DNA of 11,474 nucleotides from a virus: the UHGV virus genome UHGV-0044052; one strand, given 5' to 3'. Each line of letters starts with the position of its first letter. Position 1 is the first letter of the stretch. The notes below the pieces were generated by a model. It saw only the letters and a list, made by a program, of their open reading frames with translations, was not told the origin of the DNA and made no database searches. Both the position numbers and the translations under genes were made by a program. Positions 5,496 to 11,474 of the stretch are shown piece by piece.

Positions 5496-5542
5496 ATTTA
5501 TTTTTACCCCCTCGTTTAAAAAGTTTTGAGTTGTGCCTCCCC

Positions 5543-5767
5543 TTGTCTACCTATCTACCTTAGTGGCCCTCATGCCAGTAATGGCGCGGCTTTCAGCGGG
5601 GTAGAGTGCTTTTATCCACTATCTACCCCGTGTCTACCTCCCTGTCTGATTCAGGTAAAATCAGGTAGAGAGGGTAGATAGTGGGTAGACAGTAAAAAAA
5701 GGCTATCTACCTAACTTAATGCACTGAATTAAATGTATTTTTCTTTACTCAGGTAGACAGGGTAGAC
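5543..5767. repeat. Iteron array, putative origin of replication
   Basis: Eleven copies of the 7-8-mer GGTAGA(C/T/G)(A) in both orientations: forward at ~5600, 5664, 5673, 5684, 5752, 5761; reverse (TCTACC) at ~5545, 5553, 5621, 5632, 5705. An AT-rich stretch lies at 5693-5750. Immediately downstream of the primase gene 3' end. Confidence 0.7.
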
Positions 5768-5782
5768 AGCCATTGCAACAAA

Positions 5783-8509: not shown

Positions 8510-8729
8510 GTACCCCTCCGCATTTTTTTTCGTTAGAAATAAGCGTTCTTCTTTCCTGTTCATCGCTCAGGAATACGCAGACCTCACCGCTAAGGCGTTT
8601 AAGTAAGCCGATGATTGCCCCTGATTCGCTGTCGGTCATCATGCCAGGGTAATCCTCTGCCAGTGCGCAAATAACTTCGATTTGGTGGGCGCGTTCTGCT
8701 GCCTGTTGTAGTGTGATTTCCTGGCTCAT
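8499..8729 (-). CDS. Hypothetical small acidic protein (76 aa), early operon gene 2
   Basis: ATG at 8729 overlaps the stop of gene 1 (ATGA). Non-repetitive composition. Confidence 0.5.
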   Translation of the reverse strand: MSQEITLQQAAERAHQIEVICALAEDYPGMMTDSESGAIIGLLKRLSGEVCVFLSDEQERRTLISNEKKCGGVHVQ

Positions 8730-8926
8730 AAGCCTACCCCCTGACGAATACGGGCAGCAAATACCATCACGCAGCCAGCCGGAGATTGCTGACGCGCTTC
8801 CTGTTCGCTGGTGGCCTCGATGGTAATCACGCGCGGTTGTGCCGTGCTCAGGGCGATAAAACGCCAGATGTATTTATTCAGGTTGTACGAGTCCCGCCCT
8901 TGCGGGTGTATGGTATAATTTCTCAT
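8726..8926 (-). CDS. Hypothetical protein (66 aa), first gene of the early operon
   Basis: ATG at 8926 with SD GAGG ~6 nt upstream. Corresponds to the 3' end of the 355-aa ORF in the track, whose 5' part is low-complexity and antisense to the RHH gene and is not used. Confidence 0.45.
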   Translation of the reverse strand: MRNYTIHPQGRDSYNLNKYIWRFIALSTAQPRVITIEATSEQEARQQSPAGCVMVFAARIRQGVGL

Positions 8927-9122
8927 AGCTGCCTCGATAATCTTGCTATCGTTGGTGGTTAGAAGCCCCGTTACTGCTCCTACAGTGCGGGGTTTCGTCG
9001 TTTCTGCACCTTGCATTAACAAGGTGTAAGTAACTTTATTTATAGGTGGCTTACATGTCAATGCTTTTATGTAAGACTTTTTATGTGTATATTGTCTTAC
9101 ACTTTCATTGAGAGGATTACAG
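8927..9122. promoter_or_regulatory. Divergent promoter/operator region (genetic switch)
   Basis: Four TGTAAG / CTTACA half-sites arranged as two inverted pairs (9025-9030 / 9050-9055 and 9070-9075 / 9096-9101; the second is GTAAGAC-N16-GTCTTAC). Palindrome CCTTG-cattaa-CAAGG at 9009-9024. Candidate leftward promoter TTGACA (plus 9057-9062) - 18 bp - TAAAGT (plus 9033-9038). Candidate rightward -10 TATATT at 9088-9093. Confidence 0.6.
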
Positions 9123-9428
9123 ATGGCTACAGGTTCAAAAAACGCAAAATCACAATCACTGACAGCTCGGATCCCGCATGATGTTATTGAAGGCATGGAA
9201 TCCGTAAAACTGGACGGTGAAAGCAACGCCGGATTCATAGTAACCGCCATGCGCGGTGAAATCGCCCGCCGCCAGGCAGAAGGAAGCGGAGAAAACCCCC
9301 TGATTTCTTCGCACGATGCACTGGCGCAGGTGGAAAAACTCGGAATCAAAGCCGCCGAGGAGATCGGGCAGCTCGTCACTGTCGCACGTGAAGAACTCCA
9401 GCGCCGCAAGACCAAAGAACCAGAGTAA
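9123..9428 (+). CDS. Ribbon-helix-helix (CopG/Arc-like) DNA-binding protein, putative island repressor
   Basis: ATG at 9123 with SD GAGAGGA. N-terminal SLTARIPHDVIEGMESVKLDGESNAGFIVTAMRGEIARR fits a beta-strand / helix / helix RHH pattern. Divergent from the early operon across the operator region. Confidence 0.6.
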   Translation: MATGSKNAKSQSLTARIPHDVIEGMESVKLDGESNAGFIVTAMRGEIARRQAEGSGENPLISSHDALAQVEKLGIKAAEEIGQLVTVAREELQRRKTKEPE

Positions 9429-9485
9429 TCACCATCAGCGCCGTGGTGTAAGGTATTACGGCGCATTGCTATGCAGGACAACACA

Positions 9486-9659
9486 ATGACCGATAAAGAA
9501 TTGACCAAAACATTATCACCGGCACGGAAAAGACGGCGCAGAAAGATAGAGCATGAATCAGAAAGATTCGCGCCATGTGCTTTTGCCCTTGAGCAATTCC
9601 TTAAAGAATACAGGGAAAAGCGCTCATTGCAGGTATGGCAACGAACTGAACCAGACTGA
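9486..9659 (+). CDS. Hypothetical small basic protein (58 aa)
   Basis: ATG at 9486 with AGGA 8 nt upstream. Contains an RKRRRRK basic patch. Alternative start at 9471 as in the ORF track. Confidence 0.4.
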   Translation: MTDKELTKTLSPARKRRRRKIEHESERFAPCAFALEQFLKEYREKRSLQVWQRTEPD

Positions 9660-9753
9660 TTGCATTGCCCACCAGCCTGATAGCGGCTATCATCCCCGTG
9701 CTTATGTTTGGGATCATATACACATAAGGCGCAGCGGGTTAATTGTTCAGAAA

Positions 9754-9781
9754 GGCGGCTCCATATCGGGGCCGCTTTTTT
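9754..9781 (+). terminator. Rho-independent terminator between convergent rightward genes and alpA
   Basis: Stem GCGGC / GCCGC (9755-9759 / 9771-9775) with an ~11-nt loop, followed by tttttt (9776-9781). Confidence 0.55.
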
Positions 9782-9807
9782 CGTGTTTGTCATATCTGTG
9801 ATACCCG

Positions 9808-10014
9808 TTAAGCAGCCGTTCCGCGTGCTTCCTGTTCGCGTTCTTTCTGCCAGGCCAACACATCATCCTCATACCATCCGCGACGGCGTAAACCAACGCG
9901 AAAACCCTGCGGAAATTCTCCGGCGTTGATCATGCTTTGCAGCGTGCTGTCTGCCTTGATGTGGATAATTTTTTTTACTTCCTGGCGAAAGATAATTTTT
10001 CTGATTGCTTCCAT
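9808..10014 (-). CDS. alpA: AlpA-family transcriptional regulator / excisionase-like protein
   Basis: 68-aa product. KIIFRQEVKKIIHIKADSTLQSMINAGEFPQGFRVGLRRRGWYEDDVLAWQ matches the AlpA/Phage_AlpA HTH pattern (K..G.R.VGW.E.EV..W). Location near a P4-type integrase is typical. Confidence 0.75.
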   Translation of the reverse strand: MEAIRKIIFRQEVKKIIHIKADSTLQSMINAGEFPQGFRVGLRRRGWYEDDVLAWQKEREQEARGTAA

Positions 10015-10087
10015 CGTGATTTACCTTGTGAATCCGGTGTATTCCGGTGACAAATACGGTAAATCATCGGATATGGGTAAAAACAGT

Positions 10088-10121
10088 TCCCACCGTTTTT
10101 AAACGGTATACACCGTTTTTA
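10088..10121. promoter_or_regulatory. Palindromic operator upstream of alpA
   Basis: ACCGTTTTTAAACGGT perfect palindrome (10092-10107) plus a third CACCGTTTTTA half-site (10111-10121), within the alpA upstream region. Confidence 0.45.
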
Positions 10122-10509: not shown

Positions 10510-11474
10510 CTACACGGCTCGGATACCCCTTTTACCACTGGCGAGGGTTACGCCCGTCGCCGCAGCCTCGACAAATTCGCCCCACCAGCGCATCAGCACG
10601 ATGCGTTTTTCTATGTAGTTGCTCCGGTTGTATGCCCGTCTAACTTCGTTGGTGTCGACGTGGGCAAGTGCCGCCTCTATTACGTCCGGCTCGAATCCTT
10701 CCTCGTTCGCTGCTGTGCTGAATATGGCGCGTAATCCATGAGACACCAGCACGCCAGCGAATCCCATACGCCGCAATGCTGCGTTAGCTGTCTGGCTGTT
10801 CATCGGCTGCTGTGGGTCTTTCAGACTTGGGAAAACGTAATTGCGGTGGTGGCTGATTGGTTTCATGGCCTCCAGCACCGCCATAGCCTGACCGGAAAGC
10901 GGGATAACGTGATCCCTGCGCATCTTCATGCGTCCGGCAGGTATCGTCCATTGCTTCGCGTCCAGGTTGATTTCATCCCACCGCGTTGATGACGCTTCGG
11001 CGGGACGGGTTACGGTCAGTAACTGCCATTCAATCAGTAATCTGGTCTGCCGTTCTGTTGCCGATACTGATAAAGCCTGCATAAGCTCCGGCAGCTGTTC
11101 GGGGCGGATTGTTGGCATATGTTTTTTTACAGGTGAGGGAAACGCCTTACGCACATTCATAGCCGGATTGGCATCAATCAGCCCACTGTTGGCGGCGTAA
11201 TCCATTACCTCATTAACGCGCTGTAAAACCCGCTTGAGTGTTTCCAGGTTGCCGCGCTCCTTGATGGGTGTAAGCACTTCAACGAACCTTCGGGCGGTGA
11301 GGGTATCTATTGGCGTGTTGCCGATGAACGGGAATACATATTTATCCAGCGAACGCCAGATGTCTTTAATCGTGTTGGGGGCCAGATTCTGGCTGATTTT
11401 CACCTGGTACCATGCCGCCGCCACATTTTCGAACGTGTTCCCTTGTCTTCGGGCCTCTGTCTCTCTTTTTTGCC
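10510..11474 (-). CDS. int: Tyrosine integrase, P4-type (N-terminus beyond window end)
   Basis: C-terminal catalytic region with HGLRAIFSTAANEEGF...ALAHVD...VRRAYNRSNY (conserved R, H-x-x-R and Y). The reading frame stays open upstream of the listed GTG through the window edge (...TEARRQGNTFENVAAAWYQ), matching the NTFE..A..W motif of P4-family integrase N-termini. Confidence 0.9.
   Translation of the reverse strand, partial: QKRETEARRQGNTFENVAAAWYQVKISQNLAPNTIKDIWRSLDKYVFPFIGNTPIDTLTARRFVEVLTPIKERGNLETLKRVLQRVNEVMDYAANSGLIDANPAMNVRKAFPSPVKKHMPTIRPEQLPELMQALSVSATERQTRLLIEWQLLTVTRPAEASSTRWDEINLDAKQWTIPAGRMKMRRDHVIPLSGQAMAVLEAMKPISHHRNYVFPSLKDPQQPMNSQTANAALRRMGFAGVLVSHGLRAIFSTAANEEGFEPDVIEAALAHVDTNEVRRAYNRSNYIEKRIVLMRWWGEFVEAAATGVTLASGKRGIRAV

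Follow-up and report, generated by a model that had tools for sequence, protein, structure and literature searches.

How a Gram-negative phage-inducible chromosomal island (PICI) stays silent in its host, and how a helper phage wakes it, is the question raised by the control region found at positions 8,927 to 9,659 of UHGV virus genome UHGV-0044052 (the whole stretch analysed, of 11,474 nucleotides, is called the window). This region is the immunity and regulatory module of an island of the EcCICFT073 type, since EcCICFT073, the prototype Gram-negative PICI, has the same gene set in the same order and is itself known to carry a YlcI/YnfO gene and a 57-aa open reading frame (ORF) on the opposite strand between alpA and icd. 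Gram-negative PICIs are common and move virulence and defence genes, and EcCICFT073 is the base of PICI delivery tools, which makes its control region relevant in practice. AlpA of EcCICFT073 is induced by helpers and activates the downstream genes, and a fusion to the ORF that follows alpA is alpA-dependent (PMC6092414). The founding 2018 paper described it as unclear whether a global repressor exists in these islands, with AlpA as the sole known activator (PMC6092414). Our comparative analysis suggests that the region is built of three layers, a ribbon-helix-helix (RHH) repressor, an antisense RNA and a pass-through ORF, whose combined action probably holds the island silent before the arrival of a helper phage.

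The first of these layers was recognized from a repeated hexamer, TGTAAG, which is present in nine copies on the two strands of the 11.5-kb window, where dinucleotide shuffles give an expectation of 4.08. Four of the nine copies fall within 78 bp in alternating orientation (9025-9030, + strand; 9050-9055, - strand; 9070-9075, + strand; 9096-9101, - strand), and with one flanking base they read GTGTAAG, ATGTAAG, ATGTAAG and GTGTAAG, that is (G/A)TGTAAG, over 9024-9102. At the shuffle rate about 0.03 copies would be expected in 78 bp, and by our arithmetic four sites would occur there with a probability of about 1e-6 even allowing for all window positions. Operator pair O1 (9024..9056), made of GTGTAAG at 9024-9030 and CTTACAT at 9050-9056, brackets the -10 element of the leftward promoter P_L and has class-specific equivalents at fixed positions in relatives, and operator pair O2 (9069..9102), made of ATGTAAG at 9069-9075 and CTTACAC at 9096-9102, brackets the -10 element of the promoter of the RHH gene, P_R. 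P_L (9033..9061, - strand), from which the Icd-like/replication operon would be transcribed, consists of a -35 element TTGACA (9061-9056), a 17-nt spacer and a -10 element TAAAGT (9038-9033), with a predicted start near 9026; it gave 10 of 12 matches to the sigma-70 consensus in a consensus scan, and its -35 element (TTGACA, TTGACG or TTGAAG) is conserved in position across classes. One half-site of O1 abuts this -35 element and the other covers the predicted start. The -10 element of P_R, TATATT (9088..9093, + strand), with a predicted start near 9100 and a Shine-Dalgarno (SD) sequence GAGAGGA at 9110-9116, reads TATACT or TATAAT in relatives, and TGTGTATA(T/C/A)TG is kept across classes and genera; this promoter was missed by the consensus scan because its -35 element is weak. 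P_L and P_R are thus arranged back to back, in mirror image, each -10 element being enclosed by a pair of sites 25-26 bp apart. An earlier reading of the window, made from its letters without database searches (the sequence-only reading), had reported two inverted TGTAAG/CTTACA pairs overlapping both promoters, and these are present at the place it gave, each pair bracketing one -10 element.

To which protein these repeats belong is indicated by their variation among about 20 related islands from seven genera, taken from E. coli genomes, one genome per species and assemblies encoding variant proteins. Four sites recur in them at about -98, -75, -54 and -30 from the RHH ATG, with a repeat sequence that differs between groups. 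The aligned RHH proteins are 73% identical overall and have hypervariable residues 11-15, located between the invariant S10 and R16 on the predicted ribbon or beta-strand. The beta-strand motif and the half-site pair consistently, also across genera, and the operator co-varies with residues 11-15 over at least eight classes: QSLTAR goes with GTGTAAG (E. coli, Enterobacter soli), QLTTVR with GTGTGTTTC (E. coli, Xenorhabdus, Photorhabdus), QLFTVR with TGTGTTTCA (Serratia), QMTTVR with GTGTATTTCAC (E. coli, locus L006), QALKAR with GTGGCCCAC (EcCICFT073), KQISIR with TGTGATT (E. coli, L020), QMTTLR with GTGA(G/T)ATA (E. coli, L025) and QLKNIR or QVKNVR with GTGTGTATTT (Erwinia and Martelella, respectively). 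The type of AlpA shows no such relation. Loci L003 and CFT073 have AlpA proteins that are 95% identical and different operators, L003, L004 and L005 have the same operators and AlpA proteins only 19-49% identical, and the window and L007 also have the same operators with 25% identity between their AlpA proteins. The operator sequence therefore follows the RHH class, independently of the AlpA type. This comparative evidence strongly supports binding of the four repeats by the RHH protein. As the repeats extend over both promoters, the leftward operon and the RHH gene would both be repressed by it. The repressor on paired half-sites over the leftward and its own promoters, as earlier proposed, gains support from this co-variation across classes and genera; the accompanying idea of bistability gained no such support, no Cro-like counter-regulator having been found, and it is more likely that read-through starting at the alpA promoter upstream sets the alternative state. 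On a single 16.6-kb contig of Xenorhabdus vietnamensis, partly N-masked, two RHH modules of the same specificity class (L015 and L016) lie a few kb apart in opposite orientation, and may represent tandem or inverted satellites.

The repressor candidate itself (9123..9428, + strand) is a protein of 101 aa of the YlcI/YnfO family, in which residues 8-53 are predicted to form the RHH part and residues 59-98 a long helix. It matches the NCBIfam model YlcI_YnfO_N (NF041551) over residues 9-50 with 72.6 bits, for a cut-off of 30 (E = 1.9e-20), and phrog_6522 with E = 3.6e-57. Its AlphaFold2 (AF2) monomer model has an extended stretch at 8-18 and helices at 19-28 and 35-53, with pLDDT of 79-91; the strand cannot form in a monomer. 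The hhalign alignment to Arc (E = 0.0062) has the expected register, in which the base-contacting positions R13, Q9 and N11 of Arc line up with R16, S12 and T14, respectively. Furthermore, 31 of 42 homologues weakly match PF07704, an antitoxin-type RHH family (best E = 9.8e-4, below threshold), while the window protein itself had no match in Pfam. The family model, the strand-helix-helix pattern of the predicted structure and the weak profile matches support the putative RHH fold. The C-terminal extension of about 50 residues that had been noticed before is real, though optional, as 59-aa forms exist, including that of EcCICFT073, which look like a clean deletion. It is modelled by AF2 as one continuous long helix, in contrast to its single profile match, to the Hef HhH domain (E = 0.0095). 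Searching phage genomes by tblastn with the RHH protein gave no match.

A second layer would act on the first cistron of the leftward operon, the Icd-like gene (8726..8926, - strand), whose 66-aa product, a putative cell-division inhibitor, matches NCBIfam phage_ICD_like with 69.9 bits. Within the first codons of this gene, the + strand carries a perfect extended -10 element, TGgTATAAT (8911..8919), which would serve as the promoter of an antisense RNA; all 19 related loci compared have an equivalent (TGGTATGAT, TATGCT or TACGAT) in this position, where the His/Tyr codon has T as its last base in every case. Downstream of it we predict a cis-antisense small RNA of about 75 nt (8925..9003, + strand, the ends being approximate), with two stem-loops, of which the second is a GC-rich terminator-like hairpin (8962-8996) followed by a U-rich tail. 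Complementary to the SD sequence, the AUG and the leader of the icd-like mRNA, it has in the window the geometry of a SymR-type RNA: in cis, opposite the icd SD sequence and AUG, with two stem-loops and a terminator. The consensus fold of the leader alignment reaches -23.25 kcal/mol with 18 pairs on the + strand versus -4.71 kcal/mol on the - strand, which is that of the leftward mRNA. Compensatory changes are seen in 9 of the 18 pairs and 98.5% of cells pair (36-51% in register-shifted controls), and none of 500 shuffles matched the observed covariation. Additionally, 29 cells are G-U on the + strand, and hence mismatches on the - strand, and the reverse pattern did not occur. The window sequence 8925-9003 folds with -34.5 kcal/mol (z = -5.8) on the + strand compared with -20.7 kcal/mol (z = -2.3) on the - strand. 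The leader hairpin was also considered as a structure of the leftward mRNA and rejected in favour of a + strand RNA, given the poor - strand consensus, the + strand covariation and the G-U asymmetry. From this covariation and strand bias, together with the correctly placed extended -10 element, we conclude that the region very likely encodes a cis-antisense RNA some 75 nt long that converges with P_L and spans the SD sequence and start codon of icd.

Sub-threshold similarity to a known RNA was detected in relatives of the window. The Rfam SymR model (RF01809) aligns in full length at the same place in L007, L008 and L010, starting opposite the icd AUG, with 32-38.7 bits. SymR is a cis-encoded RNA that represses the synthesis of SymE (PMC1891008). 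Like the RNA proposed here, it has two stem-loops and lies opposite the 5' end and start codon of the gene of a harmful protein, and L007, L008 and L010 share with it the motif UUGUGRUUAG and the loop GUGUU..GCGCAC; the difference resides in the target, which in the PICI is an Icd-like gene heading a satellite operon rather than an SOS-induced AbrB-fold toxin. We also observed, on the + strand of L008 and L010 (2806-2877 in both) and of L007 (2802-2874), that the antisense RNA of these Xenorhabdus, Photorhabdus and Enterobacter islands has sequence motifs in common with SymR of E. coli K-12 beyond shape, and the symE-symR locus and the satellite leader might be evolutionarily related.

The third layer is a leftward ORF of 355 codons (8726..9793, - strand). 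Its start lies 14 nt beyond the stop of alpA, and from there it passes, in antisense, the small ORF downstream of the RHH gene, the RHH gene itself, the operators and the leader; the Icd-like gene is nested at its 3' end in the same frame. Two genes and three promoters lie inside its span, on the opposite strand or within it. Similar geometry is found in 17 of 20 related loci, as a nested arrangement of the eta/kil type: in most loci the start of the long ORF either abuts the stop of alpA or of a Bro-N gene or shares 1-8 nt with it, and its end is either fused to icd or located 12-19 nt before the icd ATG. Over the operator and leader stretch, which is AT-rich and contains 2-9 stops in each of the other two antisense frames, the long frame is free of stops in 14 of 20 loci and has one stop, 12-19 nt before the icd ATG, in 5 more; dinucleotide shuffles give a chance of 0.004-0.05 per locus for a frame to be open there. 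By count of stops in the three antisense frames, the long frame has none, and the other two have 21 and 17 (window), 32 and 44 (L002) and 27 and 26 (L008). This openness holds across operator classes of differing sequence and also across an insertion of about 700 bp in L002, where the ORF reaches 603 codons. Replacements in the long ORF are radical (mean BLOSUM62 about -1), in contrast to the conservative ones of the + strand genes, and the frame in which conserved nucleotides of the leader are read changes from locus to locus, so that what selection appears to maintain is an open frame rather than a protein. Both this ORF and the antisense RNA lie within the stretch covered by the sequence-only reading, which mentions neither. 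The PGAP annotation of an incomplete 'Icd-like' pseudogene in NZ_CP022686.1 (9314-9793, - strand) was examined as a second icd copy and rejected, as it corresponds to the 5' part of the long ORF and the Icd domain is restricted to 8726-8926; it bears that label because the database proteins are translations of the long antisense ORF.

From the computed features, namely the sites, their co-variation with the RHH protein, the structure and strand of the RNA, the open frame with its geometry and a parallel with phage P4, we infer a mechanism in which DNA binding, expression of the RNA, translation of the long ORF, a possible involvement of Rho and the order of events would be as follows. In the silent island, the RHH protein, made from the weak and self-repressed P_R, would bind the four class-specific sites and keep the strong divergent P_L, and with it the Icd-like/replication operon, off. 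Any transcript escaping from P_L would be met by the constitutive antisense RNA of about 75 nt, whose pairing with the SD sequence, AUG and leader would block translation of the Icd-like protein; if downstream expression needs translation of the first cistron, as in P1 and P4, the RNA would also silence the replication genes by polarity. Arrival of a helper phage would turn on alpA, AlpA would activate its own promoter, as shown for EcCICFT073 (PMC6092414), and transcription would read leftward, with ribosomes coupled from alpA translating the long ORF across the whole module and ending in or just before icd. This read-through would bypass both the repressed P_L and the blocked icd start and reach the primase operon, and its head-on collision with P_R and the antisense promoter would commit the island to replication.

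The parallel with P4 concerns the scaffold of its immunity region (PLL-vis-eta/kil, PLE, CI RNA, seqA/seqC). There too, a homologue of AlpA (Vis) is followed by a long ORF starting from its stop, an Icd-like domain lies at the end of that ORF, the primase operon comes next, and an internal promoter is located inside the long ORF. The P4 ORF after vis, annotated as 'cI gene product', has a match to phage_ICD_like (E = 7.8e-21), and its frame contains no stop as far back as that of vis (8821 to 8168). This is the eta/kil pair, the long ORF of the window being the positional analogue of eta and the Icd-like gene that of kil; BLASTP found no similarity between the P4 and island Icd-like proteins, which have only the family profile in common. 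In P4, eta is coupled to the alpA homologue and translated from the upstream late promoter only, and its translation prevents the termination that CI RNA imposes on transcripts of the internal promoter (summarized in PMC10111431). The two systems differ in their determinant, because P4 immunity is an RNA of the CI/C4 family processed from the same strand, whereas the PICI has an opposite-strand cassette (RHH, small protein and divergent promoters) and a cis-antisense RNA. An immunity RNA of the C4/CI type was considered for the island and rejected: at E <= 1 the Rfam models of C4, isrK and c4-a1b1 matched nothing in the window or in L003, L008 and EcCICFT073, and all three were found in the P4 control. 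The P4 scaffold is kept and these RNAs are absent, and the immunity determinant has therefore been replaced in the PICI.

Other parts of the module recall other phages. The immI region of P22 (mnt, Pant/Pmnt, arc, sar RNA, ant) likewise has an RHH repressor divergent from the promoter it represses, operators over back-to-back promoters and, in the operon under repression, a translation start faced by a small antisense RNA. An Arc-like RHH protein (phrog_228) even occupies the same slot in the L002 insertion. The PICI differs from P22 in having no ant gene downstream, its operon consisting of the Icd-like protein and replication genes; in having four sites spaced 21-24 bp instead of one compact operator; and in having an RHH protein of the YlcI/YnfO family with an optional long C-terminal helix and no second Arc-like regulator in the repressed operon. 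In the immI region of P1 an Icd-like first cistron is under RNA control, an arrangement that recalls that of the PICI. Stl proteins, the repressors of Gram-positive PICIs, are large helix-turn-helix (HTH) proteins inactivated by helper proteins. The PICI protein shows no evident relation to Stl or Rpr in sequence or fold, being an RHH protein of 59-101 aa, and AlpA activation is the established trigger. It resembles the Stl/Rpr systems found in SaPIs (pathogenicity islands from Staphylococcus aureus) in that the repressor gene is divergent from the replication and packaging operon (PMC6092414).

Each component of the module is of a known kind (RHH with operators, cis-antisense RNA, nested eta/kil-type ORF), and their combination in Gram-negative PICIs, like an RHH protein as the repressor of EcCICFT073-type islands, was not found in the literature searched; nor did that literature, after the founding paper, describe an antisense RNA or a repressor of the RHH kind for Gram-negative PICIs. 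More tentatively, EcCICFT073-type satellites as a group may carry an unrecognized three-layer immunity, composed of a master repressor of the RHH type whose specificity classes can be exchanged, an antisense RNA resembling SymR and directed at the Icd-like first cistron, and an alpA-coupled ORF that is selected only for its openness and whose translation would override the other two layers. If this were true, it would supply the missing repressor of Gram-negative PICIs and explain their induction by AlpA alone, and it would link the immunity designs of P4, P1 and P22 through the Icd-like first cistron. The long ORF would then be one apparently selected for openness and not for sequence. A repressor of swappable specificity, a candidate immunity RNA and a translation-dependent bypass also make the question of silence and helper waking experimentally direct.

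These data have to be weighed against a simple repressor switch, in which the RHH protein and its operators would be the whole mechanism, the + strand hairpins would insulate or terminate stray rightward transcription, and the antisense frame would be a by-product of composition and ancestry. The RHH and operator evidence is sufficient by itself for such a switch, and a number of results weigh against the three-layer module. The long frame shares third codon positions with the + strand genes, so its openness over those genes is unremarkable (P = 0.14-0.68 for the coding parts under synonymous shuffling). It is closed in 3 of 21 loci (Erwinia, Martelella and L025) and is therefore not indispensable. 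The loci are related by descent and the per-locus probabilities are not independent. A six-frame pN/pS analysis intended to separate the + strand genes from the antisense ORF was uninformative, as a wobble-aligned antisense frame mimics purifying selection, and the conservativeness of replacements (BLOSUM62), used in its place, favours the + strand genes. The SymR model had no match in the window, including a 151-nt search at E <= 10, which leaves the RNA there without Rfam match, and its matches in relatives are below the gathering score of 61. The fold of the repressor is assigned from weak profile matches (E = 0.006 to Arc, PF07704 sub-threshold) and a monomer model, for which Foldseek found no significant match in the PDB. 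What a simple switch leaves unexplained is that the operator and leader stretch is open at P = 0.004-0.05 in many differing operator types and across the L002 insertion too, that the ORF starts and stops in a regular geometry relative to alpA or Bro-N and icd, and that the RNA structure shows covariation in nine pairs and strongly favours one strand, with a -10 element at the right place. On this balance the simple switch seems unlikely to us, and the three-layer module remains the preferred explanation.

Two further explanations touch the RHH protein itself. It could be the autoregulating antitoxin of a type II toxin-antitoxin (TA) or addiction pair that stabilizes the island, with the small basic protein encoded after it (9486..9659, + strand) as toxin. 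The gene order, RHH and then a small partner, and the autoregulatory operators resemble those of TA operons, and the weak matches of 31 of 42 homologues to PF07704 point the same way, but no toxin family of Pfam, NCBIfam or PHROGs matches the small protein, whose AF2 model is a disordered Arg-rich basic tail and a single helix. Moreover, half of the operator sites lie on the divergent promoter of the replication operon, where a TA module would have no use for them, and islands of other genera keep the RHH gene and operators in the absence of the small protein. An addiction pair, the option that the sequence-only reading had already ranked second, is on this evidence very improbable. We give equally little credence to another factor (AlpA, a helper-phage protein or a host protein) binding the four repeats while the RHH protein has a different target. 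AlpA is indeed the experimentally established regulator of these islands, yet the sites track the class of the RHH beta-strand and are uncoupled from the AlpA type, the alpA promoter region has different repeats of its own, and host factors would need no class-specific sites. The RHH protein as repressor of both promoters, within the three-layer module, thus stays the most probable reading.

The small basic protein has 57 aa (ATG at 9486, stop at 9657-9659) and not 58 as first given, and does contain the reported RKRRRRK patch (residues 14-20), in an Arg-rich tail that is joined to one helix with an ERFAPCAFALExFLKEY core. PGAP left its ORF unannotated in Nissle 1917 and annotated it in CFT073. 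The ATG and SD sequence are conserved, and the 36 protein clusters found are all from Escherichia or Shigella and all unnamed, with an invariant core (E..ERFAPCAF.LE.FLK) and a variable C-terminal tail; the protein belongs to phrog_21027, of unknown function. Replacements have a mean BLOSUM62 of -0.02 in the small ORF frame versus -1.06 in the overlapping antisense frame (+0.18 versus -0.96 for the RHH gene, used as control), and this conservative pattern indicates a real gene. Since the small ORF is missing from the islands of other genera, although the RHH gene and operators span Enterobacterales, we consider it an accessory partner outside the core switch. In L025 and L002 the RHH gene is followed by a more distant variant of 75 aa, which has the FALExF helix in common with it.

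The + strand contains further elements around this gene. Between the RHH gene and the small ORF there is a conserved hairpin (9439..9465, GCGCCGT...ACGGCGC) without a U-tract and with a z-score of -1.9, in the loop of which a fifth TGTAAG lies (9447-9452). This copy was considered as an operator and rejected, because it is unchanged in islands of another RHH class and so does not track that class. A strong intrinsic terminator for rightward transcripts is found at 9749..9781 (+ strand), with no good U-tract when read leftward. In the stretch 9663-9790 (+ strand), directly after the small ORF, a 14-mer, ATTGCCCACCAGCC, shows no variation among 8 E. coli loci; behind it come a -10-like TATCAT/TATGAT (TTGCCC-17-TATCAT, 9665-9693), a conserved GCTTATGTTTAG and the terminator at 9749-9781. 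The element may encode a further small RNA, 50-85 nt long, or may be a site for a protein or an RNA; its conservation is real, and a search for a complementary target of the candidate RNA found none. The insertion of about 700 bp in L002 (E. coli UTME-6, 2030-2760) lies between the RHH gene and the small ORF and carries a second, unrelated module, made of a copy of the terminator hairpin of the antisense RNA, GGTAATTACCATG repeats and the Arc-like RHH protein (57 aa), and in addition the 75-aa variant of the small ORF, which suggests cassette exchange of immunity modules.

Regarding the island as a whole, the stretch 8900-9800 is 100% identical to the chromosome of E. coli Nissle 1917, where the island measures about 12 kb and adjoins tRNA-Pro and yejM, and of 5426 complete E. 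coli genomes searched by blastn, 1816 contain a match to the control region. Leftward along the - strand, the Nissle island consists of the integrase, a small hypothetical gene, the AlpA-like HTH gene (9808..10014, directly upstream of the long ORF on the same strand), the Icd-like gene, four small ORFs, a DUF4222 gene, the primase, the single-stranded DNA-binding protein (SSB), the major capsid protein, a decoration protein and the small terminase subunit. It therefore combines the int, alpA and primase genes, iteron origin, capsid/terS-type late genes and tRNA/gene attachment site of an EcCICFT073-type Gram-negative PICI. Searching phage genomes by tblastn with the Icd-like protein gave one match, in a satellite-like record of 16.5 kb. 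Between the primase and SSB genes, about 12 iterons GGTAGA(C/T/G)AG in both orientations surround an A-rich core (5539-5769), presumably the replication origin of the island, and they gave rise to a spurious Rfam match to mir-135. The region upstream of alpA (10032-10120, - strand) has two kinds of repeat, AAAAACGGTG at 10120-10111 and again at 10100-10091, a distance of 20 bp, and CACCGGA at 10049-10043 and again at 10038-10032, a distance of 11 bp; both are candidate sites for AlpA or a helper factor and are distinct from the RHH sites. The integrase ORF (10510-11474) is cut off by the right end of the window and measures 1242 nt in the full record, and the left end (1-350) is a degraded autotransporter gene outside the island.

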